DNA from: an uncultured Clostridia bacterium | Lineage (GTDB): Bacteria > Bacillota > Clostridia > Christensenellales > UBA1242 | NCBI GenBank assembly: GCA_934777435.1 | Contig: CAKVNK010000002.1 | Span: 195,889-259,888 of the forward strand | DNA: 64,000 bases | Direction: 5' to 3' | In this document: one piece after another, positions 19,501 through 59,609 of the stretch | Layout of the letters: each line of letters begins with the position of its first letter | Position numbering within the stretch: the stretch's first letter is position 1 | The notes under the pieces: model-generated | Seen by the model: only the letters and a program-made list of their open reading frames with translations | Databases searched by the model: none | Told to the model about the DNA's origin: nothing | Translations under genes and position numbers: made by a program

Positions 19501-22500
19501 CATCGATTTTGGCAATTCTGATTCAACAGGCAAAAGTATTGCTTACTATGAAACAAGGTCTTATAATGCCGTTGTTGCAAATGCTAACAAAACATCTACC
19601 GATGTTTATTGGAATTATTACAAAATACCTAAATCAGACTATGTTTACAATTCAATAAATCATTCATACACAGTTACACTTTCGAAGGTTGAAGTTGATA
19701 ATGTGTATTGCATTTATATAAAAGATGTTTCTAATATAAATTTAGCACAAAATGGTAATTATACCATTTCTGAAACTGCTGAAAATTTAAATTTTAGTTC
19801 GAATTATGATAATATATATAAAACAAGGTATAGAACATTTCTTCATTTTGGAAATAGTTATGGTTATTCCACTTTGCCAAGTTATGTCAAAGGCGTAACT
19901 ACAGATCGTTATGCAAACATGTTTAGAAATGCTGTTAACACATATAAAAATCATATAGACGAAACGCAAGTTTCAGTTGAAACATTACGAAAGTTCCATT
20001 TACGCACTGTGTACAATGGGGCGAATGGAAGATATATTTGGGTGGCAAATAACCACACTATTGGAGATTTAGCATTTGCCAAAGATTACTATGAAAACAT
20101 AGCATTCAGGTTTAATGGTGTTAATGGTGCATATGCATTAACAACAAGTAAATACAGAGGAACATTTGTTCCACATTCAGACTATTTAATTAATGACCCC
20201 GCAGGTTTACAGTTTAAAACACAAAACGTTAAGTCAATAAGAAACACAAGTTGGACAATAGATATGGACGTAAACCACATAGGTGAAGAACCAACACTTG
20301 TGCCAATATATTTCAGAGAGTCGTACAAACTCAATTTGAATTACTATTACAAAGCAGGTACATATGAATACAATGGCTTTGTTGGATACTTAAATGTAGT
20401 AGTTACCGACAACGCTGCAGAAACAAGTTCAACAGGTGGCAATGGTAAATATTTGGTATACTACAACAGCAATAAGTCAAAATGTGTAATATACAAGTAT
20501 GACACAACATCAGATACAAAACGATATAAATTAAGTTTATGGTTTGATGAATTAACAGAAGATAAAATAGTAGATTGTATAGTAATCTACCGTGGTTGTG
20601 ATGTAACCATAGAAGCCATAGACCAAAGCAAAGTATTAGATTTGAACAAAGAAAACAGTTTCTATGACCCAATGATAGGTTACAGATACACTGGAGAATT
20701 GAGTGGTAGAGTAGCGGGTGTTGAAAAGACATCATTAGATAGTTATGGATACACAATTCCATTTAACACAAACACAGAAGTAGGACAAGTAACCACAATT
20801 AATGGCTTATTTAGTGACGCGGAGCCAGTATATGTAAATGCTGGTGACTATATTAGTTTAAGCATATACTTTGCCCCTATTAACTATGACACAACCATAG
20901 CGATGACAGATACAAATGCTGGTCAGGTGCAGATTTCACGATTGGGCAACAGCAATGTCATAACAACAAGCCAACCATACAAGTTAACAAACTTGCAAAG
21001 GGGTAGTGTTGCCGAGTTCTTCTATTACGCCTATGCAGGATATGGGTTAATGGAAGAAGATTTCACCATATCCAATAATTGGATAAAGAGTTTAGATATG
21101 TCTGGTAACGAGATAGCAAGGCAAACAGATAGAGAGAAGCAGACATACAAACTTAATTTAAGTGGTGCGTGGTTAAGGATATACTTATACAAAGATGGTA
21201 CATATTCAGTAGATGCATCACAAACATTAGGTCAGATAGATGTAAACATAAAGATGTTAGAGTTTGATATTTACACTAGCATCATAGATAAATATACAAC
21301 TAAACTTGAAACTCAATGGGCAGAGAAAGGTTGGAAATTAGATAATCAATTTATATGGGAATTGCCAGTAACAGAGTTAAAAACTTATGACGGAAATACC
21401 ATATATGCATATTACCATAACGACAAGTATTATGCATTGTTAAGCAGTTGGGCAAACCAACCAAGAACACCAACCACAAGAACATTGTTGGCAGATAATT
21501 ACACTTTCTTGCTTGAAGATAAGCCAGTTAATACATACAACATAACCACAGATATATTGTTTAATATGGTGTTAACAGAACGTGGCATCATAGTACCTGA
21601 AGAAAACAGGTATATGTACTTCAATCTTGAAGTGGTAGAGATGTACAAATTGAGTTTGGCAATAGTTGTAGGTGTTAATGATACCAACTGTTCAACCAGA
21701 ACATTAACAATATCTAACACAGATAACAATACAGTAACACTTACAGCAGGCAGTGAATATATTGCATCACAAACCATGCCATATATCTACACATACCGTT
21801 GGTTGGAAAATGACTTAACGGCAACATTTGTAGATAAATATTATACAGGTGTAACATTTACAGCAACAGAAGGTGATGTTGTTCAACCAATAACTTCACC
21901 AATGCAAGCGACATCGGATATGGTTATATATGCAAACTTCACACCAGTTCAGTTGCTGGTAGATTTAACCTTTAATTACAATGGAACAAAGGTAATACAA
22001 AATCCAACAACAAGTGCGGTAGACAAAGCCAAGATAGCGGAATACTTTACATCATGGCAGATGACAACAAAATCTGGAGTGCAAAACAACATAACCAACA
22101 GCACAGAGACAGGTAAAGTTGTAGCAAATGATACTATTGCGATGGCATATACATTGAAGCCAATATACAATGTAACCATAAAGGTAAACAACAGTGCATC
22201 AAGGTTAATCTACGATACAACCACAGGCAGTTACAAAGCAGTGGTTTCAACAGACGACTATATTTCAGGTAAAGTGGAGATAGTTGTAGATATTGTGGAT
22301 AAGAAGCAAGGACAACTTAACTTAAAAGTAGATAAAGACAATTCAAATGGAGCAGTGTTCCATACCCAAGAAGCAGAGACAATGGAAACATTTGCGGACT
22401 TGTGGATAAATGGGATAAACTATGGTAAAACAGGTTCATTTATGTCTGGTTACACAGTAAAGATTAAGTTAAATTCAATACCAACAGGTTACAAATATGT

Positions 22501-23743
22501 AGGTGTAAAGAAAGACCATGGCAATGTAGATACAAGATACAAATTGACAGGTAACGAGATAGAGATAACAGACGGCAAAGTGCCAGAAGGTATGTTAGAA
22601 GATGACTATGTAACATTGATAGCTGGCACATACTATGCAGTGTTTGAGAAAGAGTTAATTTCAACCGAGATGATATTAACAGCAAGAAACAAAAACAACT
22701 ATGGCTACCAAACAAATGGCTTGCAAGCGGTATGGAGAAATGGGCATTTGGCGGTGTTAAAAGAAAGTTCAGTGCAAGACACATTAAACTTCTACCGTAA
22801 TGCAGAATTAGCAGATGAAGAACTTGTAACGTATTACTATATGGATAAGACAGGTAGACATGACATCACTGGCACAAGTTTAACCATAACCAGTGAAATG
22901 CTGGAAAATATCCAACCATTGGCAAACGGAAGCAAATTGTTAAAGATATATGTAGAGAGTAACTTAAAGTTTAACTTAACATTTACAGTAGAAGAAGAAA
23001 GTTTGCAATACTTGGAAAAGATAGAAGTGGATGGAAAGACATTAAGTTCAGTAAACAACATATTCAGCACAGCGTATAGCCTAGAGAACACCAGTGTAAC
23101 ATACAGCATAAGCAGTAAGTTACCGGATAAATACAAGATAACCATAACAGGAGATGCAACAGGCACAGGCAGTGAGATAAGCCAAAGCATAACACTTGTG
23201 ACCAACCGAAAGATAACAGTAAAGATAACCAAGAATAGTTATGGGTTAACGGTAGACGAGAAGTTGTATGCGGACATAGTTGAATTGAACAACAATGCAC
23301 CTGAAACATTAACAGGGGACGATGTGCTTAATCCAAGCATAAACGGAGATAAGGTTGGCTATGTATACAACAGTAATCCAACATATGTAGACATAGTGAC
23401 AGTTGCAGGTGAAGGTAATGATAAGAAGCAATTAACATCGATAAGGTTTGAAGACGAGAAGTTAAGTTTTGAATTAGCCTTAGACGCAACTAGCGAAGCG
23501 TACATTACAGGCATAACTGCCAAGAAAGCGGACGGCGGAGAGATAAGCAAAGCGGCCATAAAGATAAGCCCAGATAAAGAAAACGCAAATATGTATAGCG
23601 TAAGCATAACCGTTGACGGGGAAACGTTTACCTTTACTTTAGAAAAGTCTAGCACTGGCTCAATATTGTTTGGTTTTGTGGGGTTAGGAAATTCAAAATT
23701 AACTTTAACCTACACTGTTGTAAAACTGATATCCATAAGTTAG
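16592..23743 (+). CDS. Giant secreted/surface protein (2383 aa) with Listeria-Bacteroides (InlB B-repeat)-like modules
   Basis: GGGG RBS. N-terminal signal/anchor (STIIFAIVALFVSSIFAFGLNFIQVGYAAAP). Modules of the G-Y-x-F-x-G-W ... A-x-W-E-K type (YRFKGWRVEK...CVALWEK). No LPXTG or other recognisable C-terminal anchor. Confidence 0.85.
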   Translation: MVFERSKNRIELSTIIFAIVALFVSSIFAFGLNFIQVGYAAAPSSRYTFYFTCQETEYWSGDAVMETMYTYFDDDIELAYSPNDYPDYIKKDENGAQYRFKGWRVEKLQSYYGTGDPLTAKVASVVDECASDRFELYQPTGPIGDLAYYRCVALWEKRYFNEEIIASDDESWTPLGTEGKGIVYSVFDYDNSYNGDYIDFGGDREFRINMFATGTDMCDYESIKFFDSVYYDKYTQYYDDYEKMCEVFEESMYEEDPEVIGVIPGSAAKSIWYMERPDPVINNNKSTPRLRRFCDWKRLNFYIRFQPNSGSIQNLCVGSFWIPALPRSMYNKLPGITTNSPFVTSSTAYNDLDVKCQMFSIYNYEFKTMMEMQYSDGVNDPAYFIQFLGFNVEGGADVGSSTISVYADYREKDWRKESGDVFLKYNLVFNQPNNVSTGKNAGAFWYKKLGTTGDFTKVQADDGSPCALTMAIYDKTKIDITYSNNETVFTFYMSSYTYSRRTIKYSIADGYRFDSLNRNGNQDLSPQNNLTSQSFVTDKDEEINLNYQLIYYNLSIGYTTIGLSNNTKAYLASSEYRPNNDKTYQDVTRLKNSCLSVEGYELPTASNTTALTDIFGEDYATLVSNQKVFSGWLLDLTALERLGYTYDENTNTATRSYNYKTSPIVQQVDEPTWVKFEAGKASTTLNGERRICLKLTKIYGFGNFVFGLSNVASAGFIWGDNSKHISSESFVLPIVPNWSSQYNLSISNPIRTVNFVSSKDSVSGVLKNTSSTIYSTVNFKVTSNSNIDFVFPKGAAFCSYANITSYSEIYDENGNYGLFNYGHDIIGYQISFKYGGMTYYPYYYKPANAIIKSWKALYLKNGNYYYTTYGSSGTATDVQCNVSTINNQIYMSIKDFSYTLFGKTSTADMQSLIRCFASWTQGDFVLRDTTFVVTPVWDNAKINITESMPNQFGSASKIDTFTIKFEDAYNIDFGNSDSTGKSIAYYETRSYNAVVANANKTSTDVYWNYYKIPKSDYVYNSINHSYTVTLSKVEVDNVYCIYIKDVSNINLAQNGNYTISETAENLNFSSNYDNIYKTRYRTFLHFGNSYGYSTLPSYVKGVTTDRYANMFRNAVNTYKNHIDETQVSVETLRKFHLRTVYNGANGRYIWVANNHTIGDLAFAKDYYENIAFRFNGVNGAYALTTSKYRGTFVPHSDYLINDPAGLQFKTQNVKSIRNTSWTIDMDVNHIGEEPTLVPIYFRESYKLNLNYYYKAGTYEYNGFVGYLNVVVTDNAAETSSTGGNGKYLVYYNSNKSKCVIYKYDTTSDTKRYKLSLWFDELTEDKIVDCIVIYRGCDVTIEAIDQSKVLDLNKENSFYDPMIGYRYTGELSGRVAGVEKTSLDSYGYTIPFNTNTEVGQVTTINGLFSDAEPVYVNAGDYISLSIYFAPINYDTTIAMTDTNAGQVQISRLGNSNVITTSQPYKLTNLQRGSVAEFFYYAYAGYGLMEEDFTISNNWIKSLDMSGNEIARQTDREKQTYKLNLSGAWLRIYLYKDGTYSVDASQTLGQIDVNIKMLEFDIYTSIIDKYTTKLETQWAEKGWKLDNQFIWELPVTELKTYDGNTIYAYYHNDKYYALLSSWANQPRTPTTRTLLADNYTFLLEDKPVNTYNITTDILFNMVLTERGIIVPEENRYMYFNLEVVEMYKLSLAIVVGVNDTNCSTRTLTISNTDNNTVTLTAGSEYIASQTMPYIYTYRWLENDLTATFVDKYYTGVTFTATEGDVVQPITSPMQATSDMVIYANFTPVQLLVDLTFNYNGTKVIQNPTTSAVDKAKIAEYFTSWQMTTKSGVQNNITNSTETGKVVANDTIAMAYTLKPIYNVTIKVNNSASRLIYDTTTGSYKAVVSTDDYISGKVEIVVDIVDKKQGQLNLKVDKDNSNGAVFHTQEAETMETFADLWINGINYGKTGSFMSGYTVKIKLNSIPTGYKYVGVKKDHGNVDTRYKLTGNEIEITDGKVPEGMLEDDYVTLIAGTYYAVFEKELISTEMILTARNKNNYGYQTNGLQAVWRNGHLAVLKESSVQDTLNFYRNAELADEELVTYYYMDKTGRHDITGTSLTITSEMLENIQPLANGSKLLKIYVESNLKFNLTFTVEEESLQYLEKIEVDGKTLSSVNNIFSTAYSLENTSVTYSISSKLPDKYKITITGDATGTGSEISQSITLVTNRKITVKITKNSYGLTVDEKLYADIVELNNNAPETLTGDDVLNPSINGDKVGYVYNSNPTYVDIVTVAGEGNDKKQLTSIRFEDEKLSFELALDATSEAYITGITAKKADGGEISKAAIKISPDKENANMYSVSITVDGETFTFTLEKSSTGSILFGFVGLGNSKLTLTYTVVKLISIS
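19953..23476 (+). repeat. 3.5-kb direct repeat, copy 1 (inside giant gene 1)
   Basis: Appears identical to 27203-30726 (offset 7250). Encoded protein and all antisense pseudo-ORFs are identical. Identity begins at atatagacgaaacg and ends at gttttgaatta. Confidence 0.85.
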
Positions 23744-24006: not shown

Positions 24007-27000
24007 ATGATTTATCAAAAAAACAAATCTAAATTACGTGTTTCAACAATTCTGCTTGCAGTTATTGTGCTTTTTGTAGCTTCTCTTTGTACTTTTGGCT
24101 TTAATGTGTTGCAAAATAGTGATGCTGCCGCCGTGTCATGGCAAATAAATTATATATTCCATTTGGGATCTGCTCCATATTGGTATGGTAATGAGATAGA
24201 GACAATGTCCACTTCAAGGATAACAATGATTGATGGCCCTTATGCATTTTCACCAAATGATGCTAACAATAAATCAAAAATTGGCAAGGGATACTTATTT
24301 AAGGGGTGGTCAGCTACAGAAGGGTCAAATAGGGTTGATGCACAAGATGGATTTAAATTAAACCACCCAACCTCAGCAAAAGTGTTAACTTTACACTATT
24401 ATGCTGTGTGGGAAAAAATTGAAAAATTTGATAGTGATGATTCTGTTGAAATATCAACAAAAAGCATCAAAATCACATATAGTGATAAGAGTGAGGATTA
24501 TGGAGGCAATAGAGAAGTTGTTGTAACACTCTCTGGTAAAGTGGAAAACGACTCTACTACCGATAATCGCTTAAAGTTTTATAAAAACACTCTTGGATGG
24601 AGCATAGATCAAACAGCGGGTAGCTCTGGTTCAACTTGGTATCTTGCTCCAAAAGTTGTTGATGGCACACTTTACAACAATGGTTTGCCAGTGCTTAGAA
24701 GCTTTACGTCTTGGACAACTCTTAGGTTTGCAATTAGGTATACCCATATTGATAGCCAGGTTTACACTGTTAATGTTGCATCTGTTGATGTGCCTTCTTT
24801 GAATTCGGATTTAACCAATGGTATAACCAATTATTTGGCTGGTAAATCAAATAGCAATTCGGTTGTGGTTTATGGTAAAAAATTTTCAGTGGCTAAAGCT
24901 ATTGATGCTGGCGGATTGAATGCCAAAATAAACAATTATATAAAGAAAAATTTTACTTATACATATGAATATGGAACCATATACGTCAATTTTGTAGGAA
25001 TAAACGACACAAAAAATGATCAGATCTTCACAAAATATGATTTAATGTTTAAAGCACCAATAAATATATCAACAAATGTAAACAAGGGGGCTTTTTGGTA
25101 TTATGGTGCAAGCACTGCTTCATTGGCCGCTTCAAAATCAGCAAATGGTACTGCTTCAGATTTGAAATATAAGGTATATGCTGACACTAATATAACTTAC
25201 AATAATAGCACAGCAAATAATAGATTTGAATTTAATACGGTAACTAGAGAAAATGGTCAAACTGTAAGTAAAAAGATATATGTTGTATACCGCATCCAAG
25301 ATGGTTATTCGTGTGAAAATATTGTATCAAACACACAAAATTACTTATATAGATATCCTACAACTAATTTGTCATCGAAAACTTGGACTATTTCTGCTAA
25401 TGAAACGATAACATCTGAATATAGCTTGATGTATTATAGTTTGACGGTTGGTTATACAGTGCAAGGTAGTTCGGTTAATGTTGCTTCTCAAGACGAAAGT
25501 GGAACTGTGAAAATTGTTAAATCCACATCTTATCAACCTAATGGTGGTAAAACATCTTACCAAGATGTAAGTTACACATATGACAATTCACAAAGCATAT
25601 TTTCAGTTGAGGGCTATGAATTGCCAACAACAGCGGCTGATTTGCAATCAATATTTGGTGGCGACTATGACAGATTATTGGGTACTAATGGTGGCGGAAC
25701 AAAACGAACATTTAATGGCTGGTTACTTGATGTTACTTCTTTGGAGGCGTTGGGTTATCAACTTGACAATAATTTATCAGGCAATGGCACTGTTTACTAT
25801 AGAAAATCATCACAATGGGTTAAATTTGACGTCGGAAATAAAATCACAACATTAAATGGATCAAGATCTATATATTTATCTTTAACAAAAGTATATGGAT
25901 ATGGAGATTTCTTATTTGGTCAGAATTCCAATATTAACAATGGTTATTGTTGGGGAACAAATAACAACAAAGGTTTTGAACCAGCATCATTTATTATGCC
26001 GATTGTTCCAAACTGGTCTTCAGAATATAACTTAAGTGTGTCAAATCCAAAAAGTTCTGTTGTTGTAGATAACGCAAACACAACAAAAACAATATCAGGT
26101 GTTTTGCTTGGCTCATTAAATGGTGTTTATGATGGTTGTACATTTAAAGTGACAAGTAATACAAATATTGACTTTGTTTACTCCAAAGGAACAGCCTTTT
26201 ATCAATCGGATAATATCAAGTCATCAAGTTTATATAATACAGCAGGTCAATATGGTTTGTTTAATTATGGTCACGATATTATAGGCTATCAAATAACATT
26301 TAAATATGGTGGAAAGACTTTTTATCCATATTATTGTAAAGTAGCAGGGGAGTATTCAAAACAATGGAGACCATTATACTATAACAGTTCAGACGGAAAT
26401 TATTATTCTGACACATATAACGCTGATGGTTCAATTAGCTCAAAAGTTTATCCCGTATCACAAATTAACAATCAAATTTATATGTCGCTAAATGACTTTA
26501 AAAAAGTTTTTTGGAATACAGAAACTGATGTAAGCACAAACATGAGGGAATTGATATATTGCTTTGCAAGTTGGACTCAAGGTGACTTTGTGTTACAAGG
26601 AACAACGTTCGTAGTTTCCCCTGTTTGGCGTAAAGCGGATATTTGTATAACAGAAGCAACGGCAAATCAATTTGGCTCTGCTTCAAAAATAGACACAGTT
26701 ACAACAAGTATTGGAAATCAATATAATATTCCATTTGGTGATTCTGCTTCTGCAGGTAAAAGCATTGCATACTACAAAACAAAAAGCAATAAAATTGTTG
26801 TGGCAAATCAAAATGGATATAGTGGAAATGTGACATGGAATTACTACAATCATTCAATATTTGATTATGATTATAACTTAACAAACAATCAATATATAAT
26901 AGAACTTAAAAAGTTTGAAGTTGATAATGTGTATCGTGTTTATTTTAAAGATGTATCTAATTTAAATCTTATTGAAGATTGTGAGTATATTGCCGTTAAT

Positions 27001-30000
27001 GATAGTGATGATGGTAATGAATCTATCTTTGGTGGGAATAGAAATGATGCTTACTCTGTTACATACAGAACATATTGGAATTTTGCCGCATCGTCTGATT
27101 GTTATGGCAGTTTGCCAAACTATGCTATCACAACGACACAAGTGCCAGCGACAGATTACTTTGCATCGTTGTTCAAGGTACAAGTAGATAGGTATGAAAG
27201 TAATATAGACGAAACGCAAGTTTCAGTTGAAACATTACGAAAGTTCCATTTACGCACTGTGTACAATGGGGCGAATGGAAGATATATTTGGGTGGCAAAT
27301 AACCACACTATTGGAGATTTAGCATTTGCCAAAGATTACTATGAAAACATAGCATTCAGGTTTAATGGTGTTAATGGTGCATATGCATTAACAACAAGTA
27401 AATACAGAGGAACATTTGTTCCACATTCAGACTATTTAATTAATGACCCCGCAGGTTTACAGTTTAAAACACAAAACGTTAAGTCAATAAGAAACACAAG
27501 TTGGACAATAGATATGGACGTAAACCACATAGGTGAAGAACCAACACTTGTGCCAATATATTTCAGAGAGTCGTACAAACTCAATTTGAATTACTATTAC
27601 AAAGCAGGTACATATGAATACAATGGCTTTGTTGGATACTTAAATGTAGTAGTTACCGACAACGCTGCAGAAACAAGTTCAACAGGTGGCAATGGTAAAT
27701 ATTTGGTATACTACAACAGCAATAAGTCAAAATGTGTAATATACAAGTATGACACAACATCAGATACAAAACGATATAAATTAAGTTTATGGTTTGATGA
27801 ATTAACAGAAGATAAAATAGTAGATTGTATAGTAATCTACCGTGGTTGTGATGTAACCATAGAAGCCATAGACCAAAGCAAAGTATTAGATTTGAACAAA
27901 GAAAACAGTTTCTATGACCCAATGATAGGTTACAGATACACTGGAGAATTGAGTGGTAGAGTAGCGGGTGTTGAAAAGACATCATTAGATAGTTATGGAT
28001 ACACAATTCCATTTAACACAAACACAGAAGTAGGACAAGTAACCACAATTAATGGCTTATTTAGTGACGCGGAGCCAGTATATGTAAATGCTGGTGACTA
28101 TATTAGTTTAAGCATATACTTTGCCCCTATTAACTATGACACAACCATAGCGATGACAGATACAAATGCTGGTCAGGTGCAGATTTCACGATTGGGCAAC
28201 AGCAATGTCATAACAACAAGCCAACCATACAAGTTAACAAACTTGCAAAGGGGTAGTGTTGCCGAGTTCTTCTATTACGCCTATGCAGGATATGGGTTAA
28301 TGGAAGAAGATTTCACCATATCCAATAATTGGATAAAGAGTTTAGATATGTCTGGTAACGAGATAGCAAGGCAAACAGATAGAGAGAAGCAGACATACAA
28401 ACTTAATTTAAGTGGTGCGTGGTTAAGGATATACTTATACAAAGATGGTACATATTCAGTAGATGCATCACAAACATTAGGTCAGATAGATGTAAACATA
28501 AAGATGTTAGAGTTTGATATTTACACTAGCATCATAGATAAATATACAACTAAACTTGAAACTCAATGGGCAGAGAAAGGTTGGAAATTAGATAATCAAT
28601 TTATATGGGAATTGCCAGTAACAGAGTTAAAAACTTATGACGGAAATACCATATATGCATATTACCATAACGACAAGTATTATGCATTGTTAAGCAGTTG
28701 GGCAAACCAACCAAGAACACCAACCACAAGAACATTGTTGGCAGATAATTACACTTTCTTGCTTGAAGATAAGCCAGTTAATACATACAACATAACCACA
28801 GATATATTGTTTAATATGGTGTTAACAGAACGTGGCATCATAGTACCTGAAGAAAACAGGTATATGTACTTCAATCTTGAAGTGGTAGAGATGTACAAAT
28901 TGAGTTTGGCAATAGTTGTAGGTGTTAATGATACCAACTGTTCAACCAGAACATTAACAATATCTAACACAGATAACAATACAGTAACACTTACAGCAGG
29001 CAGTGAATATATTGCATCACAAACCATGCCATATATCTACACATACCGTTGGTTGGAAAATGACTTAACGGCAACATTTGTAGATAAATATTATACAGGT
29101 GTAACATTTACAGCAACAGAAGGTGATGTTGTTCAACCAATAACTTCACCAATGCAAGCGACATCGGATATGGTTATATATGCAAACTTCACACCAGTTC
29201 AGTTGCTGGTAGATTTAACCTTTAATTACAATGGAACAAAGGTAATACAAAATCCAACAACAAGTGCGGTAGACAAAGCCAAGATAGCGGAATACTTTAC
29301 ATCATGGCAGATGACAACAAAATCTGGAGTGCAAAACAACATAACCAACAGCACAGAGACAGGTAAAGTTGTAGCAAATGATACTATTGCGATGGCATAT
29401 ACATTGAAGCCAATATACAATGTAACCATAAAGGTAAACAACAGTGCATCAAGGTTAATCTACGATACAACCACAGGCAGTTACAAAGCAGTGGTTTCAA
29501 CAGACGACTATATTTCAGGTAAAGTGGAGATAGTTGTAGATATTGTGGATAAGAAGCAAGGACAACTTAACTTAAAAGTAGATAAAGACAATTCAAATGG
29601 AGCAGTGTTCCATACCCAAGAAGCAGAGACAATGGAAACATTTGCGGACTTGTGGATAAATGGGATAAACTATGGTAAAACAGGTTCATTTATGTCTGGT
29701 TACACAGTAAAGATTAAGTTAAATTCAATACCAACAGGTTACAAATATGTAGGTGTAAAGAAAGACCATGGCAATGTAGATACAAGATACAAATTGACAG
29801 GTAACGAGATAGAGATAACAGACGGCAAAGTGCCAGAAGGTATGTTAGAAGATGACTATGTAACATTGATAGCTGGCACATACTATGCAGTGTTTGAGAA
29901 AGAGTTAATTTCAACCGAGATGATATTAACAGCAAGAAACAAAAACAACTATGGCTACCAAACAAATGGCTTGCAAGCGGTATGGAGAAATGGGCATTTG

Positions 30001-30993
30001 GCGGTGTTAAAAGAAAGTTCAGTGCAAGACACATTAAACTTCTACCGTAATGCAGAATTAGCAGATGAAGAACTTGTAACGTATTACTATATGGATAAGA
30101 CAGGTAGACATGACATCACTGGCACAAGTTTAACCATAACCAGTGAAATGCTGGAAAATATCCAACCATTGGCAAACGGAAGCAAATTGTTAAAGATATA
30201 TGTAGAGAGTAACTTAAAGTTTAACTTAACATTTACAGTAGAAGAAGAAAGTTTGCAATACTTGGAAAAGATAGAAGTGGATGGAAAGACATTAAGTTCA
30301 GTAAACAACATATTCAGCACAGCGTATAGCCTAGAGAACACCAGTGTAACATACAGCATAAGCAGTAAGTTACCGGATAAATACAAGATAACCATAACAG
30401 GAGATGCAACAGGCACAGGCAGTGAGATAAGCCAAAGCATAACACTTGTGACCAACCGAAAGATAACAGTAAAGATAACCAAGAATAGTTATGGGTTAAC
30501 GGTAGACGAGAAGTTGTATGCGGACATAGTTGAATTGAACAACAATGCACCTGAAACATTAACAGGGGACGATGTGCTTAATCCAAGCATAAACGGAGAT
30601 AAGGTTGGCTATGTATACAACAGTAATCCAACATATGTAGACATAGTGACAGTTGCAGGTGAAGGTAATGATAAGAAGCAATTAACATCGATAAGGTTTG
30701 AAGACGAGAAGTTAAGTTTTGAATTAACCTTAGATATATCTAGCGAAGCATATATCTCAAGCATAACGGCCAAGAAAGCGGACGGCGGAGAGATAAGCAA
30801 AGCGGACATAAAGATAAGCCCAGATAAAGAAAACGTAAATATGTATAGCGTAAGCATAACCGTTGACGGGGAAACTTATACTTACACATTTAAAAAGTTG
30901 GATACTGGTGCTATCCAATTTGGATTTATTGGTTTAAGCAATGCAAGGTTAACATTGACTTACACAATCTATAAACTGATATCTATAAGTTAG
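24007..30993 (+). CDS. Giant secreted/surface protein paralogue (2328 aa)
   Basis: GGGG RBS. Signal/anchor STILLAVIVLFVASLCTFGFNVLQNSDAAAV. The N-terminal ~1070 aa have diverged from gene 1 with conserved islands (FSVEGYELPT, LFNYGHDIIGYQI, CFASWTQGDFVL). The central 1174 aa are identical. The last ~89 aa are about 80% identical. Confidence 0.85.
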   Translation: MIYQKNKSKLRVSTILLAVIVLFVASLCTFGFNVLQNSDAAAVSWQINYIFHLGSAPYWYGNEIETMSTSRITMIDGPYAFSPNDANNKSKIGKGYLFKGWSATEGSNRVDAQDGFKLNHPTSAKVLTLHYYAVWEKIEKFDSDDSVEISTKSIKITYSDKSEDYGGNREVVVTLSGKVENDSTTDNRLKFYKNTLGWSIDQTAGSSGSTWYLAPKVVDGTLYNNGLPVLRSFTSWTTLRFAIRYTHIDSQVYTVNVASVDVPSLNSDLTNGITNYLAGKSNSNSVVVYGKKFSVAKAIDAGGLNAKINNYIKKNFTYTYEYGTIYVNFVGINDTKNDQIFTKYDLMFKAPINISTNVNKGAFWYYGASTASLAASKSANGTASDLKYKVYADTNITYNNSTANNRFEFNTVTRENGQTVSKKIYVVYRIQDGYSCENIVSNTQNYLYRYPTTNLSSKTWTISANETITSEYSLMYYSLTVGYTVQGSSVNVASQDESGTVKIVKSTSYQPNGGKTSYQDVSYTYDNSQSIFSVEGYELPTTAADLQSIFGGDYDRLLGTNGGGTKRTFNGWLLDVTSLEALGYQLDNNLSGNGTVYYRKSSQWVKFDVGNKITTLNGSRSIYLSLTKVYGYGDFLFGQNSNINNGYCWGTNNNKGFEPASFIMPIVPNWSSEYNLSVSNPKSSVVVDNANTTKTISGVLLGSLNGVYDGCTFKVTSNTNIDFVYSKGTAFYQSDNIKSSSLYNTAGQYGLFNYGHDIIGYQITFKYGGKTFYPYYCKVAGEYSKQWRPLYYNSSDGNYYSDTYNADGSISSKVYPVSQINNQIYMSLNDFKKVFWNTETDVSTNMRELIYCFASWTQGDFVLQGTTFVVSPVWRKADICITEATANQFGSASKIDTVTTSIGNQYNIPFGDSASAGKSIAYYKTKSNKIVVANQNGYSGNVTWNYYNHSIFDYDYNLTNNQYIIELKKFEVDNVYRVYFKDVSNLNLIEDCEYIAVNDSDDGNESIFGGNRNDAYSVTYRTYWNFAASSDCYGSLPNYAITTTQVPATDYFASLFKVQVDRYESNIDETQVSVETLRKFHLRTVYNGANGRYIWVANNHTIGDLAFAKDYYENIAFRFNGVNGAYALTTSKYRGTFVPHSDYLINDPAGLQFKTQNVKSIRNTSWTIDMDVNHIGEEPTLVPIYFRESYKLNLNYYYKAGTYEYNGFVGYLNVVVTDNAAETSSTGGNGKYLVYYNSNKSKCVIYKYDTTSDTKRYKLSLWFDELTEDKIVDCIVIYRGCDVTIEAIDQSKVLDLNKENSFYDPMIGYRYTGELSGRVAGVEKTSLDSYGYTIPFNTNTEVGQVTTINGLFSDAEPVYVNAGDYISLSIYFAPINYDTTIAMTDTNAGQVQISRLGNSNVITTSQPYKLTNLQRGSVAEFFYYAYAGYGLMEEDFTISNNWIKSLDMSGNEIARQTDREKQTYKLNLSGAWLRIYLYKDGTYSVDASQTLGQIDVNIKMLEFDIYTSIIDKYTTKLETQWAEKGWKLDNQFIWELPVTELKTYDGNTIYAYYHNDKYYALLSSWANQPRTPTTRTLLADNYTFLLEDKPVNTYNITTDILFNMVLTERGIIVPEENRYMYFNLEVVEMYKLSLAIVVGVNDTNCSTRTLTISNTDNNTVTLTAGSEYIASQTMPYIYTYRWLENDLTATFVDKYYTGVTFTATEGDVVQPITSPMQATSDMVIYANFTPVQLLVDLTFNYNGTKVIQNPTTSAVDKAKIAEYFTSWQMTTKSGVQNNITNSTETGKVVANDTIAMAYTLKPIYNVTIKVNNSASRLIYDTTTGSYKAVVSTDDYISGKVEIVVDIVDKKQGQLNLKVDKDNSNGAVFHTQEAETMETFADLWINGINYGKTGSFMSGYTVKIKLNSIPTGYKYVGVKKDHGNVDTRYKLTGNEIEITDGKVPEGMLEDDYVTLIAGTYYAVFEKELISTEMILTARNKNNYGYQTNGLQAVWRNGHLAVLKESSVQDTLNFYRNAELADEELVTYYYMDKTGRHDITGTSLTITSEMLENIQPLANGSKLLKIYVESNLKFNLTFTVEEESLQYLEKIEVDGKTLSSVNNIFSTAYSLENTSVTYSISSKLPDKYKITITGDATGTGSEISQSITLVTNRKITVKITKNSYGLTVDEKLYADIVELNNNAPETLTGDDVLNPSINGDKVGYVYNSNPTYVDIVTVAGEGNDKKQLTSIRFEDEKLSFELTLDISSEAYISSITAKKADGGEISKADIKISPDKENVNMYSVSITVDGETYTYTFKKLDTGAIQFGFIGLSNARLTLTYTIYKLISIS
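27203..30726 (+). repeat. 3.5-kb direct repeat, copy 2 (inside giant gene 2)
   Basis: See copy 1 (19953-23476). Confidence 0.85.
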
Positions 30994-31049: not shown

Positions 31050-31283
31050 CTATCTTTTCTAGCACTCTGTAGTTTCTGCGTTTGCTAAAAATATGTTGAT
31101 TTATTATTGCTTAATGCCTAAAATGTGGCAATTTAACATTAAAATTTGCACTTAATTGATAGTTGTTTGCTTTAAACTGCTAATAAATTGCCGTTTTATA
31201 CTCAAAGGCTGGCAGAATAGTGATTTTTGATGTTGTAAACTGCCAAATAAATGGCGGTTTTGACAAAAAGTGTCGTTTTTTGT

Positions 31284-31310
31284 TTGACTATCATTTTTTT
31301 TTGGTATAAG
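31284..31310 (+). promoter_or_regulatory. Putative promoter of the TasA-like expression site
   Basis: TTGACT at 31284 and an extended -10 (TGgTATAAG) at 31302-31310. Two operator-like repeats (taaactgcYaaWaaat) lie upstream at about 31174 and 31238. Confidence 0.4.
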
Positions 31311-31316
31311 ATTGAA

Positions 31317-31789
31317 GTGTAAAGTATGTGATGTCGATTAATCATACTTTTGAGCAGAGGACAATTTATAATGTTTACATTAATAAATTGGCTTTTGCGA
31401 AAAAGTTGTTTAATATGTTAAGTGAACGTAAGTGAACGCAACATATTAGGCAAGTTTATGCTTATTCATTTAAGCAAAAGGCAAACTTAATGTGGCAACA
31501 CATTAGGATTGTTGGGGGTGAACCCCTACAAGTAAATTTGCAAATTTGTTTGTAGTGATACAAACTTTCGGCACTTGAATTGTACACACCAGGTGCTGAA
31601 AAGCAAAATGCTTTCGCGACATCGCAAAGGCATTTAGGTTCCTTTGGTATCAGCCAAAAGGGCAGTTTGGCAAACTAAAAATGCTAAAACGTTGAATTAT
31701 TGCCTTAGTCGGAAAAGTGTAATGGTTTGACGTACGCTTTGGTAAAACAAAGCAAAACTTATTTAAAAAATTTAAAGGGGAAAATAAAA
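31317..31789 (+). promoter_or_regulatory. Long (~470 nt) hairpin-rich 5' leader or candidate structured RNA
   Basis: No ORF of 60 aa or more. At least 8 stem-loops, several with GNRA loops (taatgtg-GCAA-cacatta, gtttgta-GTGA-tacaaac). Mutually exclusive pairings around ccaaaagg (cctttgg/ccaaaagg versus gccaaa/tttggc). Confidence 0.4.
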
Positions 31790-32431
31790 ATGACAAAAAT
31801 GAAATCTAAAAAGATGTCAAAGTCAACATTTGCAATCATTATAATGGGAATTATTATGGTCGCTATGCTCGCTTTCGGCGGCACTTTCGCGTACTTTACT
31901 GCTAGTGCAAAAGCTGATAGCACAAAAGAATTAAAAACAGGTTATGTAAAATTGTCAGCCAACGGTGCTTTAGCAAGCGTTACAGCAACAAATATTATGC
32001 CTGGTGAAACTATTCTTGCAGAAAATGCTATTAAACTTACAGTTGATACAACTGAAACTAAAGGTAATTATGTTGCAATTAAATTTGTTATAACAGCCAA
32101 AGATTCTTCTGGTGCTGCTATTACAGATTTATCAAAAGTTGGTTTAAACCTTACAACTGCACTTGGTGCAAATTGGATTGCTAGTGGTACTGATAACATT
32201 TATCTTTATGGCACTGGTGATGCTGCAACTGTAGTTAAATCAGGTGAATTAAATGTAAATGCTGCTGCTTTAAAATTTGATGCAACAGATAACTGGACTC
32301 AAGGAGGAACAAGTTCAGACAACAAATTAATGGAAGCAACAATCACAATTTCAATGGAAGCACACTCAATTCAATCAACTGGTGTTGATGCTGCAACAGC
32401 TAAAACACAACTTGTAGGTTTGTTTGCTTAA
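31790..32431 (+). CDS. TasA/camelysin-family secreted protein with SipW-type signal peptide (expressed copy A)
   Basis: GGGG RBS upstream of ATG 31790. MTKMKSKKMSKSTFAIIIMGIIMVAMLAFGGTFAYFTA matches the SipW-dependent signal-peptide pattern (GGTFAYF-T/S). A terminator follows. Confidence 0.8.
   Translation: MTKMKSKKMSKSTFAIIIMGIIMVAMLAFGGTFAYFTASAKADSTKELKTGYVKLSANGALASVTATNIMPGETILAENAIKLTVDTTETKGNYVAIKFVITAKDSSGAAITDLSKVGLNLTTALGANWIASGTDNIYLYGTGDAATVVKSGELNVNAAALKFDATDNWTQGGTSSDNKLMEATITISMEAHSIQSTGVDAATAKTQLVGLFA
31839..31904 (+). repeat. Inverted repeat, left arm (66 bp, inside the signal-peptide coding region)
   Basis: ttataatgggaattattatggtcgctatgctcgctttcggcggcactttcgcgtactttactgcta is the exact reverse complement of 33296-33361. 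Confidence 0.95.
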
Positions 32432-32449
32432 TTACAATCAAATTAAAAA

Positions 32450-32471
32450 ACACGCATTAGCGTGTTTTTTT
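32450..32471 (+). terminator. Terminator of cassette A
   Basis: acacgc-atta-gcgtgt followed by T7. It is the reverse complement of the hairpin at 32736-32751. Confidence 0.75.
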
Positions 32472-32728
32472 CATATTTATTGGGGGGGGATTTTCAATAA
32501 TACCTATATATATTATATATTAGAACAGCAAAACAACTTTTGCTGTTCTTTATATTAATATATGTATATGGTTGATTTTTCACCCAAAGTTTTTTTAAAC
32601 AAAGTTGTTCAATATTAATACGTTCATTTTAATTAATATATTTTAATCTCTGTATTTATGCTTGTTTAAGTTTAACAAGATTTAATCTCAACTCGCTTTC
32701 TAACAAACCAAATTTCAATTTTTATGCA

Positions 32729-32752
32729 CAAAAAAACACGCTAATGCGTGTT
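32729..32752 (-). terminator. Terminator of cassette B
   Basis: Read on the minus strand: acacgc-atta-gcgtgt followed by a T-run. Confidence 0.7.
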
Positions 32753-32759
32753 TTTTTTA

Positions 32760-33356
32760 TTATTTATTGTCTATTGTAGCGGCTGCATAAGCTCCAGCAA
32801 CATCTGTGCCGAAACCTTCATATTGAGCTGCAGATGAATCAATAGTTACTTTAATTGTTGCATCCATTAATGAACCTTTTAATGCTTCAGTACTTACACT
32901 ATAACCATCAAAAGTAATGCTTGAACAAACATCTTTCGGTGTTGACGCTTCAGCACCTTCAATAACTGCATAGTAAACATCTGTTTGATCTGGTACAAGT
33001 TTCCAATCCGCAGCAACTGTTGGTGTTAATTTGTATTCGCCTTCTGCTTTTGGTTCTGCTGTAACCTTTTTCAATACTGCTGTATTATAGCCTTCACCTG
33101 TAGCTTTTGTAATGTCTACAGAGAATTTAACAAATACATATGTTTTAACATTTGAATTTGATGTGATAGTAACTTTGTTTTCATCACCAACAAGTAATTC
33201 TTGTCCTGGAACTACTTTTGTTGTCAAAGTGAAAGTGCTGTTTGCACCTAATTGAACTCTACCAGTTTGAACTTCTTTACTTTGTGCTGTTGTAGTAGCA
33301 GTAAAGTACGCGAAAGTGCCGCCGAAAGCGAGCATAGCGACCATAATAATTCCCAT
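32760..33356 (-). CDS. TasA/camelysin-family cassette B, 5'-truncated (no n-region or RBS); probable silent copy
   Basis: The ORF starts inside the inverted repeat at MGIIMVAMLAFGGTFAYFTA. An in-frame TGA lies 6 codons upstream and the nearest SD-like GGTGA is 15 nt away. The mature region (TTTAQSKEVQTGRVQLGANS...) is paralogous to copy A but diverged. Confidence 0.65.
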   Translation of the reverse strand: MGIIMVAMLAFGGTFAYFTATTTAQSKEVQTGRVQLGANSTFTLTTKVVPGQELLVGDENKVTITSNSNVKTYVFVKFSVDITKATGEGYNTAVLKKVTAEPKAEGEYKLTPTVAADWKLVPDQTDVYYAVIEGAEASTPKDVCSSITFDGYSVSTEALKGSLMDATIKVTIDSSAAQYEGFGTDVAGAYAAATIDNK

Positions 33357-33361
33357 TATAA
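33296..33361 (-). repeat. Inverted repeat, right arm (66 bp)
   Basis: Exact reverse complement of 31839-31904. Identity breaks on both flanks. Confidence 0.95.
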
Positions 33362-33432
33362 CGCGGTTAATTCACCTTTTTGCTAATTTGCTAATCATAG
33401 ATTACGCAAATATGAGCCTTTCAGGTGATTAA

Positions 33433-33768
33433 CCGCTTGCTATCAAGGGCGGAAACAATCTTTCCCCCTTGATGAATCCCCTTTGACTAAATAGGGCTAT
33501 TGAAGTGTGAGAGCCAATCAGTGTAAGGACAAGTGTGTTCGTGGCGTTTATTAAGAGACAAACCAATTTTAACTTTGTTAAAATTCTTTTTCCCTTAATG
33601 AATCCCTTTTGGTTAAAGCGGATTATGAAGTGTGCTTCGAAGTCGGTGCGTGGAAGTCTATTGGGTGGCCGCCCGCTTGCTATCAAGGGTGGAAACAATC
33701 TTTCCCCCTTGATGAATCCCCTTTGACTAAATAGGACTATTGAAGTGTGAAAGCAAATCAGTGTAAGG
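33433..33768. repeat. Triplicated structured repeat (two ~96-bp copies about 96% identical, plus a degenerate middle copy)
   Basis: Copy 33433-33528 and copy 33673-33768 differ at 4 positions. A degenerate copy lies at about 33581-33655. Each full copy contains the hairpin tcaaggg-c-ggaaa-caatc-tttcc-cccttga. Confidence 0.8.
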
Positions 33769-33846
33769 CTGGGGTTGTCCCTTTTACGTGTAAACCTACT
33801 ATGTAAGGCTTTGTAGGGGCTTCTAAAAAGTGGCCTGTTATTCCAT

Positions 33847-33929
33847 TTGTATATTATAAAATATACAAATATGTAATTGTATATTATAAAATATACAAAT
33901 ATGTAATTGTAGATTGAAAAATATACAAA
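33847..33929. repeat. 30-bp tandem repeat (2.8 copies), each unit containing a 10-4-10 palindrome
   Basis: Unit ttgtatattataaaatatacaaatatgtaa at 33847 and 33877, with a degenerate copy at 33907. Palindrome is tttgtatatt-ataa-aatatacaaa. Confidence 0.85.
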
Positions 33930-34032
33930 AGCACCTTTAGGGCGTATGGTGGCTTGCTATTATGATTATTTACTTTGTAAAACACTGGATATTGCAATGC
34001 TTTTAAATTTTATGTTTGTGTTAATTGTTTGA

Positions 34033-59517: not shown

Positions 59518-59609
59518 TTTCACCCTTTTTAGTTGCTTTTTGATTAGCAATTTGTTATCATAAATTTAATAGGTGAAGGGCAAACGTTAGAGTTTGCTTC
59601 TTTTTTTTA

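Follow-up and report, generated by a model that had tools for sequence, protein, structure and literature searches.

RESULTS

The inversion switch and the array outside its right arm

The locus lies within a 64-kb window (the whole stretch of DNA that was analysed) and carries an inversion switch by which gut Christensenellales exchange one C-terminal cassette of a camelysin/TasA-like fibre subunit for another. The parts of the switch are as follows.

31790 (ATG) to 32431 (stop): expressed camelysin/TasA-like gene, with a match to Pfam PF12389
31839-31928, + strand: IR-L, the left arm, a 90-nt inverted repeat 90% complementary to 33272-33361
32760-33356, - strand: alternative cassette, promoterless and startless, first residues MGIIMVAM
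33272-33361, - strand: IR-R, the right arm, at the 5' end of the alternative cassette

IR-L falls in the signal-peptide part at the 5' end of the expressed coding sequence, and a terminator scan placed three canonical terminators between the two cassettes. An equivalent pair of inverted repeats was found in 8 related loci; the more distant relatives L014 and L016 are without the same switch layout. The inversion switch beside the array is a working one: loci L002 and L003 are inversion isomers whose flanks are 100% identical and whose inter-arm segments match in reverse complement at 98.9% identity, and both orientations are seen in nature, on two metagenome contigs of one relative. No recombinase gene was found within the 64-kb window or adjoining any related locus, and no transposase gene within the window. 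It is now recognised that inversions within coding regions commonly exchange portions of surface proteins in gut bacteria; our search of the literature on Christensenella phase variation and TasA invertons returned nothing specific.

An array of structured repeats begins 2 nt past IR-R and extends to about 33965, beyond the three repeat copies that were described initially. Its elements are listed without a strand unless one applies.

33363-33436: boundary hairpin LLIR1, with outer arms at 33363-33376 and 33424-33436 (13 bp plus one bulged T) and an inner hairpin at 33387-33396/33400-33410
33433-33528: module A copy 1, with a bulged hairpin at 33443-33472, a C-rich box ATCCCCTTTGA at 33476-33486 and a box TTGAAGTGTGAGAGCCAATCAGTG at 33500-33523
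33549-33655: module B, with an outer stem at 33551-33558/33590-33598, an AU-rich inner hairpin at 33565-33573/33577-33585 with U-rich tracts on both strands, a C-rich box ATCCCTTTTGG at 33602-33612 and a box ATGAAGTGTG at 33626-33635
33555-33584, + strand: sigma-70-like promoter candidate in module B (GAGACA, 18-nt spacer, TAAAAT, upstream TG)
33673-33768: module A copy 2, 96% identical to copy 1, with its hairpin at 33683-33712
33769-33846: spacer with weak hairpin-plus-U features (GGGGTTGTCCCTTTT)
33847-33965: LLIR2, a second boundary-type element with three 30-bp tandem units

The initial annotation had reported a long-loop inverted repeat at 33363-33435 followed by two full repeat copies and a degenerate middle copy. 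The inverted repeat exists and adjoins IR-R, but it ends at 33436, one nucleotide further on. A repeat search recovered the two 96-nt direct copies just as described (92/96 identical, with 4 differences, 240 nt apart), and the full-copy hairpin motif TCAAGGGNGGAAACAATCTTTCCCCCTTGA had exactly 2 matches in 64 kb at ≤3 mismatches where 0 were expected, as did each of the two blocks downstream of the hairpin (two matches, 0 expected). The middle copy is likewise present as a third, partial copy (33580-33626, 74 to 77% identical over 47 nt), but it belongs to a conserved and distinct subtype, module B, and is not simply degenerate.

The modules follow a common plan of about 95 to 107 nt, occur in one to three copies per locus and fall into subtypes A and B. 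In every module a G-rich/C-rich hairpin is accompanied by two boxes, one single-stranded and C-rich (on the + strand AUCCCCUUUGA or AUCCCUUUUGG), the other the invariant GAAGUGUG. In module A the hairpin, whose loop measures 5 to 8 nt and differs between sequences, is followed by UGAAUCCCCUUUG; in module B an outer stem, TTAAGAGA/TTCCCTTAA, surrounds the inner hairpin AATTTTAAC-TTT-GTTAAAATT. The tandem units of LLIR2 (33847-33929; TRF period 30, 2.8 copies, 94% matches) each hold a palindrome, TTGTATATT-N4-AATATACAA. Past the tandem units lies GGGCGTATGGTGGCTTGCTATTATGA, a homologue of the 3' arm of L005-type boundary hairpins together with the start of a module A. In keeping with this homology, the L005-type hairpin gave a Blast match at 33920-33955, the remnant of a second boundary-type hairpin.

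The array is non-coding. The 89-aa open reading frame at 33429-33698 (- strand), which had been explained as the repeat read through, exists but is an artefact: it has no relative among 5.8 billion proteins, so that as a proxy for further copies of the array it led to none, and its frame is disrupted by 1-nt indels between orthologous copies. A micro-ORF, NTG-AAG-TGT (M-K-C), was also considered; read from the alignment, it ends after 3, 8, 23 or 28 codons depending on the lineage, and it was not taken as a conserved gene: its first base is T, G or A, but a start codon results from three of the four possible bases anyway, and the peptides differ in length. Two further candidates were set aside. 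A template/variable pair of a diversity-generating retroelement (DGR) was considered since 3 of the 4 copy differences involve A in copy 2, but there is no reverse transcriptase, the sequence is non-coding and the sample is tiny. A G-quadruplex was discounted, each unit having merely two G runs and no G4 motif.

Distribution of the modules

From the genome that contains the window, the searches covered the 64 kb of the window alone, and there the unit matches are confined to the array itself. An nhmmer search of 261 kb of sequence from 9 related lineages, with both units as queries, gave matches confined to the right flank of the switch, and over 261 to 316 kb of related loci the module matches were restricted to the same syntenic flank. 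Degenerate patterns of the unit found one locus, syntenic, among 185,579 GTDB genomes (representatives that do not include the window's own genome) and one locus, again syntenic, among JGI metagenomes; viral contigs, phages and plasmids held no module match. Exact look-ups of proteins from the window gave no recorded entry. The modules are thus not dispersed but are found at this locus only. They are kept beside homologous switches in at least 6 lineages, with module A orthologues in L001, L004, L005, L008, L009 and L013; L006, L010 and L011 are without A or B modules.

The earlier statement that the sequence matches no recognisable RNA or IS family held up in Rfam, phage and plasmid searches, all of which were empty over the array. 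In Rfam the units scored at best 16 to 17 bits, a chance level, against thresholds of 40 to 44, with no family reaching E = 1, and the sole family at its gathering threshold in the whole window was tmRNA (5211-5564). Rfam also returned nothing for the equivalent flanks of L006 and L011. Hallmarks of a MITE or IS were not seen in the array: its copies are direct, the ends of the unit are not inverted repeats of each other, and there are no target duplications. Because the modules are restricted to one locus and the phage, plasmid and Rfam searches were empty, the array is not a MITE or IS remnant. IS200/IS605 ends, a TnpB omega-RNA and an IS110-type bridge RNA for a Piv-like invertase were likewise rejected, there being no Rfam match and no transposase or recombinase in the window. 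The conserved segments of the unit did not match the inverted repeats; the best shared words were 8 nt long and not conserved.

Conservation of the array

In Christensenella sp. UBA4626, LLIR1 is identical to that of the window at 75/75 positions, the spacer is 95% identical, module B 90% and module A 89%. Module A of L005 is 81 to 83% identical to that of the window, module A copy 2 is 97% identical to the L013 copy, module B reaches 100% in L013, 96% in L002 and 90% in L001, and the spacer at 33769-33846 is 83% identical in L013. At four-fold degenerate sites of two adjacent genes, the identical fraction was 0.40 to 0.55 against UBA4626, L004, L005, L006 and L008 and 0.47 to 0.67 against L002. 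By this comparison of sequences, the array is more conserved than the neighbouring genes, and since the modules remain 81 to 100% identical between species while four-fold degenerate sites are saturated (0.40 to 0.55), the array is probably under purifying selection. Stems and boxes of the modules are fixed, the changes being located in variable segments, the bulge and loops, and one compensatory pair (C-G to U-A) splits two groups of four module-A sequences. Additional conserved helices proposed by RNAalifold for the box region were rejected; they show no covariation, and the differences between copies 1 and 2 break them.

The same observations bear on the possibility that the array consists of non-functional relics, that is, scars of local duplication, deletion or insertion at a recombination hot spot, whose conservation is merely apparent and arises from horizontal exchange of the locus. 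The region is plastic and mosaic: module number and order vary by lineage, L001 and L002 have an inserted Phd/Doc module, L006 and L008 an inserted GTCATYCTGAGC-type repeat that is dispersed, and boundary-hairpin types are swapped between close relatives, the window having the UBA4626 type and L013 the L002 type. This mosaic of types shows that pieces of the region are exchanged between lineages, and apparent conservation is therefore inflated; moreover, fresh inverted duplications are complementary without any selection. However, the A and B paralogues, about 25 to 35% different, have the same invariant columns in all species, and orthologous A copies are not identical but show a graded difference of 3 to 19%, with neutral sites saturated. 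Stems and boxes are spared by substitutions, and even between deeply diverged lineages the boundary hairpin stands at exactly one and the same position. We regard an origin of the array purely as relics as very unlikely.

The boundary hairpin

The outer arms of LLIR1, GCGGTTAATTCACC (33363-33376) and GGTGATTAACCGC (33424-33436), close a hairpin with a folding energy of -30.3 kcal/mol on the + strand and -32.1 kcal/mol on the - strand (z about -6.3), and 0 of 200 shuffles were as stable. Where the window has LLIR1, L002/L013, L004/L005/L008 and L011 have unrelated sequences that share its two-tier fold. Such hairpins, of at least four unrelated sequence types, lie 1 to 6 nt outside IR-R in different lineages, a distant relative included, and four unrelated types at this position fold at -22 to -36 kcal/mol (z -5 to -8). 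The boundary hairpin is thus conserved despite turnover of its sequence. The hairpin of L004 closes on the + strand only, via G-U pairs. Inspection of the arms for an integron attC-like site showed no GTTRRRY/RYYYAAC pair in any of the four hairpin types.

One of the three functions suggested in the initial annotation was a recombinase or accessory-protein binding array. As a DNA-level accessory element, the palindromes and boxes would bind a trans-encoded invertase, a directionality factor or a nucleoid protein; alternatively, the boundary palindrome would extrude as a cruciform. Either way, the element would determine how efficiently inversion or cassette exchange proceeds, or which way it is biased. 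It can be compared with the Hin/Gin enhancer, the IHF and Lrp sites at fimS, the Borrelia vlsE inverted repeat and the Neisseria pil Sma/Cla repeat. Consistent with such a role, the array and its counterparts in related loci keep a constant position, in cis, at the outer edge of one recombination arm, and the hairpin types act like exchangeable alleles, each near-invariant across species and mutually unrelated. The inner palindrome arms TTTGTATATT/AATATACAAA are invariant in L004, L005, L008, L013 and the window while their spacer varies, and the window palindromes stand in tandem with a 30-bp period, equal to three helical turns. In the L005-type hairpin, the 5' arm resembles a tandem partial duplicate of the IR-R end and the 3' arm is 12/13 complementary to IR-R. 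On the other hand, there is the lack of a recombinase gene in the window or beside the related loci, the array has no counterpart outside IR-L, which is coding, and the palindrome spacer varies between 3 and 4 nt, which is unusual for a dimer operator. The likeness of the hairpin arms to the inverted-repeat ends was marginal (p 0.02 to 0.07 in L004, L005 and L008) and not significant elsewhere, and the idea that the arms are copies of these ends is for that reason kept merely as a remark. Finally, the switch is present in L006 and L010 without the modules. We consider a DNA-level accessory function rather unlikely.

Candidate transcription signals around the array

The promoter candidate in module B is a consensus match only, and the total of the promoter scan was not above shuffle expectation; an equivalent promoter-like site is present in L005 and L008, and among the window copies only module B has one. 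On both strands of 33362-34032, the terminator scan reported no terminator-like site, the A hairpins failing; the inner hairpin of module B falls outside the criteria of the scan because it is AU-rich with U tracts on both sides. In L005, module A is followed on the + strand by AAAGCC...GGCUUUUUU, a terminator-like hairpin plus U tract, a feature that is weak or absent past the module copies of the window. At the place equivalent to the array, L006 has a + strand promoter.

A further suggestion of the initial annotation, that the array might serve as a second leader RNA for the right-facing cassette, was abandoned. The right-hand cassette lacks a start for the signal-peptide n-region, has no Shine-Dalgarno sequence close enough to be used and shows no homology to the true leader; a short-word BLAST of the right flank against the true leader and promoter gave only chance-level words. 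Two words, ATTGAAGTGT and TTTGACTA, are shared with the pilin promoter and are not conserved in the promoters of UBA4626 or L011.

Several of these features are what would be expected of an insulator array, in which the hairpins act as non-canonical terminators, RNase III sites or roadblocks and have no role in trans. Such an array would keep read-through across IR-R out of the promoterless cassette and out of the convergent or neighbouring gene. In every hairpin-bearing lineage the boundary hairpin adjoins IR-R whatever the neighbour gene, be it the - strand 341-aa homologue, the Phd/Doc module or a + strand 588-aa gene (L011). The inner hairpin of module B, which has U-rich tracts on both strands, encloses the neighbour gene's stop codon in L005 and L008 and has the look of a bidirectional terminator. 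The L011 flank has terminator-like sites of which 4/4 are on the + strand, against 0.5 expected, and L006 has canonical + strand terminators by reading of the sequence, though the scan lists none. In addition, internal AUGs of the silent cassette lie 4 to 6 nt downstream of the base of the boundary hairpin. Yet the invariant columns are single-stranded boxes such as GAAGTGTG or ATCCCCTTTGA, which terminators do not need, the A hairpins failed the scan on both strands, three canonical terminators already stand between the cassettes, and L006 and L010 manage without a strong boundary hairpin. We consider an array with insulation as its sole function doubtful.

Transcription of the array from the - strand was also considered. 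The array would then be a long structured 3' untranslated region of the upstream - strand gene (341 aa) or of a toxin-antitoxin operon, and its RBS-like G-rich motifs, UCAAAGGGGAU and AAGGGGGAAAG, would form a decoy or sponge for an RBS-binding factor or stabilise the mRNA. Throughout the module-bearing clade the array is co-oriented with the neighbouring - strand gene; in the window there is no canonical - strand terminator between that gene and IR-R, and in L004 module A begins 6 nt past the neighbour's stop codon. In four lineages the outer stem of module B has one non-Watson-Crick position, which reads G-U on the - strand but A-C on the + strand; each module has two SD-like motifs. Against this, the A module and boundary hairpin of L005 and L008 lie downstream of a terminator-like hairpin at the gene stop, the equivalent architectures of L011 and L006 carry + strand signals, and the SD-like motifs are not followed consistently by a start codon; moreover, we know of no RBS-binding factor in this clade. 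A - strand RNA is, in our estimate, quite unlikely.

Complementarity to the pilin ribosome binding site

The pilin RBS UUAAAGGGGAAAA (31772-31784) is G-rich and invariant in all lineages. On the + strand, the module sequence AUCCCCUUUGA is complementary to the RBS sequence UUAAAGGGGA over 10 bp (-14.9 kcal/mol), and module B gives -17.2 kcal/mol. The pairing of the window-type A copies, and of the B copies of both the window and L002, beats at least 99% of shuffles (p about 0.003 to 0.01); the - strand does not beat shuffles likewise, and in L005 and L008 the shuffle p value is 0.05 to 0.06. The core match corresponds to 8 to 10 nt of SD-like sequence. Variation in the C-rich box is from C to U only (CCCC, CUCC, CCUU, CCCU), so that pairing to GGGG is kept; the pattern is equally readable as purine transitions between SD-like variants on the - strand. 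Since the RBS is equally conserved in L006, L010 and L011, which are without A/B modules, the modules are no obligatory partner of the RBS.

DISCUSSION

Of the three functions proposed initially, we tentatively place the small-RNA option first, although the evidence does not decide between them. The mechanism that we favour, with a probability of roughly 0.3, combines + strand RNA modules, whose C-rich boxes would act on the pilin RBS, with an insulating boundary hairpin. According to this proposal, the array may be transcribed from the + strand, reading outward from the switch, with a start at the promoter-like site in module B or through transcription that leaves the switch. Hints of the + strand come from the terminator-like sites in the flank of L011, the promoter and terminators of L006, the sequence past module A in L005, the strand-specific closure of the L004 hairpin and the promoter candidate in module B; the G-U position in the outer stem of module B points to the - strand. 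The C-rich boxes would pair with the RBS UUAAAGGGGAAAA of the fibre-subunit mRNA, or with similar Shine-Dalgarno sequences, which would make the modules an anti-SD regulator in tandem copies, as Listeria LhrC1-5 and the streptococcal csRNAs are. The boundary hairpin, for its part, may serve as a structural insulator at the IR-R edge, so that neither transcription nor translation enters or leaves the silent cassette there.

A two-part, switch-associated element is a related reading that we judge unlikely. Here the boundary hairpin would act in cis on inversion or silencing, and RNA modules would tune translation of the expressed variant, by means of the C-rich boxes or, from the opposite strand, of the RBS-mimicking G-rich boxes. 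If true, phase variation at the DNA level and control at the RNA level would be linked at a TasA-like fibre locus of an uncultured gut lineage. For the Christensenellales, a health-associated and poorly studied gut group, a regulatory role of the array would provide a handle for predicting or engineering phase variation of TasA-like fibres; if the elements are merely terminators or relics, the outcome is a tidy annotation of a lineage-specific repeat.

Like REP/BIME/REPIN and MITE repeats, the array is made of imperfect palindromes and intergenic units of about 100 nt. Those repeats are dispersed in tens to hundreds of copies, whereas the array occupies one syntenic locus, and its copies are direct, without terminal inverted repeats or target duplications. 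Cis-acting structures are known from antigenic variation, namely, the inverted repeat of Borrelia vlsE and the G-quadruplex and Sma/Cla repeat of Neisseria pilE. With these the array shares a structure-forming non-coding element at a fixed place beside a variable locus, its presence kept while its sequence turns over; they differ in that they serve gene conversion and not inversion, and no G4 motif is present here.

In the 3' untranslated region of the Staphylococcus aureus icaR mRNA, a UCCCC anti-SD motif pairs with the Shine-Dalgarno sequence of the same mRNA. As there, a C-rich motif lies downstream of a surface- or biofilm-related gene and is complementary to the RBS of that gene, but here three terminators and the whole silent cassette intervene, which makes a single mRNA with both gene and motif unlikely. 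Another comparison is with the C-rich small RNAs of Firmicutes that have an anti-Shine-Dalgarno function and lie in several tandem copies, namely, Listeria LhrC1-5 and the streptococcal csRNAs. In them, too, one intergenic region contains a series of adjacent paralogous units, each about 100 nt long, with a stable hairpin and C/U-rich motifs able to pair with the G-rich RBSs of surface proteins. In contrast to them, the units of the array do not seem each to have their own promoter and terminator, the array is fixed beside an inversion switch, and its transcription is only predicted; in the Rfam search of the units, where no family reached E = 1, no sequence similarity to them appeared.

The switch itself resembles the invertible pilin and surface-protein switches Moraxella tfpQ/tfpI-Piv and the R64 shufflon, in which a constant 5' coding part is joined to alternative 3' cassettes. 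We group with them the intragenic invertons (bioRxiv 10.1101/2023.03.11.532203). Common to all are intragenic inverted repeats with two convergent cassettes between them and the occurrence of both orientations in nature; unlike those systems, the present switch has no recombinase adjacent. To our knowledge, a conserved hairpin and repeat array outside one arm is not a described part of such switches, and the surroundings of the recombination arms have hardly been examined so far in inversions of this kind. If the array does control switching, the silence of the alternative cassette or translation of the expressed variant, it would represent a missing regulatory layer of these switches.

The inversion switch

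The fibre-subunit (pilin) switch is framed by a 90-nt inverted repeat whose arms fall within the 5' coding parts of two camelysin/TasA-like genes in convergent orientation (Pfam PF12389, with a SipW-type signal peptide). The features of the window considered here are as follows.

31284-31312, sigma-70-like promoter of the left gene, TTGACT-17-TAAGAT
31839-31928 and 33272-33361, left and right repeat arms (IR-L and IR-R)
32445-32471, 32522-32549 and 32730-32757, terminators between the cassettes
33363-33376 and 33424-33436, arms of the boundary hairpin, a long-loop inverted repeat (LLIR1)
33433-33528 and 33673-33768, module A, copies 1 and 2
33549-33655, module B

The left gene is complete, with its promoter, a leader of ~480 nt, a ribosome-binding site (RBS) and the start MTKMKSKK. 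The right gene starts (MGIIMVAM) inside the repeat, without an n-region or a usable Shine-Dalgarno (SD) sequence. The first and last of the three terminator hairpins form a perfect inverted pair of 27 nt, which keeps the terminator layout identical in either switch orientation. The fibre-subunit leader, within the promoter-leader stretch 31262-31789, contained islands nearly 100% identical to UBA4626 (e.g., 31473-31600, with palindrome AAATTTGCAAATTT) and matched no Rfam family.

Syntenic loci of relatives, gathered via homologues of the neighbouring 476-aa protein, all shared this arrangement; the closest named genome was the metagenome-assembled Christensenella sp. UBA4626 (locus L001). For two loci of one species from different samples (L002:798-2368 and L003:798-2365), the inter-arm segment was 98.9% identical when reverse-complemented and the flanks were 100% identical. 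These opposite orientations between identical flanks indicated that the switch really flips in nature. No recombinase gene was found in the window.

Directly upstream of the switch are two giant open reading frames (ORFs) of 2383 and 2328 aa (16592-23743 and 24007-30993). The 3' end of the second was 68% identical in the JGI metagenome locus L013, versus 96-100% for the non-coding flanks of the switch, a contrast suggesting either a hypervariable giant gene or an exchanged switch.

A modular array outside the right arm

A repeat search of the window recovered the two ~96-bp copies described in the initial annotation, direct repeats 240 nt apart with 4 differences, and a partial third copy at 33580-33626. 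Within 64 kb, the bulged hairpin of 30 nt and the two blocks downstream of it were confined to these copies (0 expected by chance), and the whole 469-nt stretch showed more structure than shuffles did on either strand (z of -4.9 and -5.5). Module A combines a 12-bp hairpin, variable in its loop and bulge, with a C-rich box and a second box containing GAAGTGTG. The middle copy had been called degenerate; a partial copy is indeed present, but it has the same design as A with ~22 nt inserted in the loop (module B), the insert forming an inner AU-rich hairpin flanked on both strands by U-rich tracts. L005 and L008 have the stop codon of the neighbouring gene within this inner hairpin. Comparison of the loci shows a modular array. 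Every module also carries NTG-AAG-TGT (TTG in A, GTG in L009, ATG in B; window 33500-33526 and 33626-33650), which opens a short ORF on the + strand (3 to ~35 codons) that is conserved only in its first three codons and is probably incidental to the conserved GAAGTGTG box.

When the window and twelve loci (261 kb) were searched with the A and B units (nhmmer), matches fell only in the right flank of the switch.

Table. Module matches (nhmmer) and order of parts outward from IR-R; LLIR(w) is the window type.
Locus; matches; order of parts
Window; 3; LLIR(w)-A-B-A-spacer-LLIR(L005 type, three tandem palindromes)-A remnant
UBA4626 (L001); 3; LLIR(w)-A-B-A(degenerate)-Phd/Doc
L002; 2; LLIR-B-A(hairpin disrupted)-Phd/Doc
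L003; 2
L004; 1; LLIR-A-gene end
L005, L008; 1 plus partial B; LLIR-A-half of B fused to gene end
L009; 1 plus partial B
L006, L007, L010, L011, L012; 0
L013; order only; LLIR(L002 type)-B-A-LLIR(L005 type)

A degenerate unit pattern occurred at a single, syntenic locus among 185,579 GTDB representative genomes, and a second such pattern at a single, syntenic locus in JGI metagenomes (L013); viral contigs, phage records and plasmids yielded no units. As initially proposed, no RNA or insertion sequence (IS) family was recognized: over the units nothing reached Rfam gathering thresholds, and at E up to 10 there were only chance-level matches. The predicted 89-aa ORF (33429-33698) had no relative and its frame was broken between orthologues, in keeping with mere repeat read-through. 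A MITE, an IS remnant and a curated RNA family were rejected, since the modules are locus-confined and syntenic in relatives and have no Rfam family. Together, these results establish a real non-coding array that is restricted to this locus and conserved beside homologous switches.

A Phd/YefM-Doc(Fic) toxin-antitoxin pair, absent from the window, is inserted between the array and the neighbouring homologue of the 341-aa gene in two lineages (L001:3389-4032, L002:2724-3337).

Conservation and selection

At four-fold degenerate sites of two adjacent genes, identity was saturated (0.40-0.55) between the window and UBA4626, L004, L005, L006 and L008, and was 0.47-0.67 against L002. The non-coding parts were far more similar: against UBA4626, LLIR1 was identical at 75/75 positions, the A-B spacer at 95%, B at 90% and A at 89%; A was 81-83% identical to that of L005, and B 96% to that of L002. 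Changes were confined to the hairpin loop, bulge and variable stretches, with stems and boxes invariant even between the old A/B paralogues, and the A hairpin showed one compensatory exchange (C-G to U-A). The mosaic spread of LLIR types implies that pieces of the region were also exchanged between lineages, so that transfer may account for some of the identity. Two patterns favour purifying selection on structure as well as sequence, namely the graded divergence of A and the dependence of change on position. The array is thus probably under selection, and the view that it consists of relics was ranked last, as improbable.

The boundary hairpin

The long-loop inverted repeat said to abut the right arm was confirmed: LLIR1 begins 2 nt after IR-R and folds at -30 to -32 kcal/mol (z about -6.3). 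The hairpin has two tiers, outer arms rich in G+C and an inner palindrome rich in A+T. Its exact position is taken by four types unrelated in sequence (window/UBA4626, L002/L013, L004/L005/L008 and L011), none occurring again in 316 kb. The three that were folded gave -22 to -36 kcal/mol (z from -5 to -8), and the arms of the L011 type, adjoining IR-R, are perfect over 12 nt even though this locus is distant (flanking protein only 36% identical). A pure terminator/insulator array, ranked second, is an unlikely reading.

At 33847-33929, three tandem 30-bp units each carry a palindrome, TTGTATATT-N4-AATATACAA, that looks operator-like; L004, L005 and L008 have a single pair of its arms within the boundary hairpin, and L013 has two pairs.

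Strand assignment and action as RNA or DNA

Signals pointed both ways. Several favour the + strand, which reads outward from the switch: the L011 flank holds four terminator-like sites, all on this strand (0.5 expected); L006 has a + strand promoter with a palindrome in its spacer, and + strand terminators by manual reading, although the terminator scan lists none there; in L005, a + strand hairpin with a U6 tract comes after module A; in L004, G-U pairs let the boundary hairpin close on the + strand only; and module B carries GAGACA-18-TG-TAAAAT on this strand. Conversely, the B outer-stem mismatch becomes G-U on the − strand in four lineages, and the array and the upstream gene share one orientation, with no canonical terminator between that gene and IR-R in the window.

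On the + strand, the single-stranded box AUCCCCUUUGA would form 10 bp with UUAAAGGGGA of the pilin RBS (-14.9 kcal/mol; -17.2 for module B). This pairing beat at least 99% of shuffles for window-type A copies and both B copies (window, L002) and was marginal for the L005 type; − strand pairing was no better than shuffles. The pilin RBS is invariant in every lineage, and the box varies only from C to U, keeping pairing to GGGG. However, the core is an 8-10-nt SD-like sequence, the C-to-U pattern reads equally as − strand SD-like variants, and the same RBS occurs in lineages without modules. The link is suggestive but not strong. A − strand 3'-UTR or decoy RNA, ranked fourth, seems rather improbable.

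In favour of a role as DNA, species share invariant sequence in the inner palindrome arms, and the palindromes of the window are in tandem at a 30-bp period; the palindrome spacer, varying between 3 and 4 nt, speaks against a simple operator. DNA accessory sites or a cruciform for the invertase, ranked third, are a doubtful reading. Ranked first, tentatively and at a probability of roughly 0.30, is an array of structured + strand RNA modules carrying anti-RBS boxes, combined with a boundary hairpin that would act as an insulator.

Other elements of the window

SmpB (1482-1946, +) and tmRNA (5211-5564, −; Rfam 126.9 bits, not reported by ARAGORN) are ~3 kb apart. A 296-aa ORF (58660-59550) with a Zot-type P-loop domain (PF05707, E = 3e-11) may mark a filamentous-phage-like element near the window end.

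Comparison with other flanks and repeats

L006 and L011 have no A or B and carry their own unrelated palindromic tandem repeats in the same flank (L006:8328-8523, 46 nt twice at 150-nt spacing; L011:6575-6932, 40 nt twice at 188-nt spacing); the architecture of the flank is thereby repeated in different sequences. A GTCATYCTGAGCG...GAAGRATC-type repeat also has copies in flanks (L008:8590-8640, L006:8570-8680, L001 ~6990-7030); unlike the A/B modules, it resembles an intergenic repeat that is widely dispersed.
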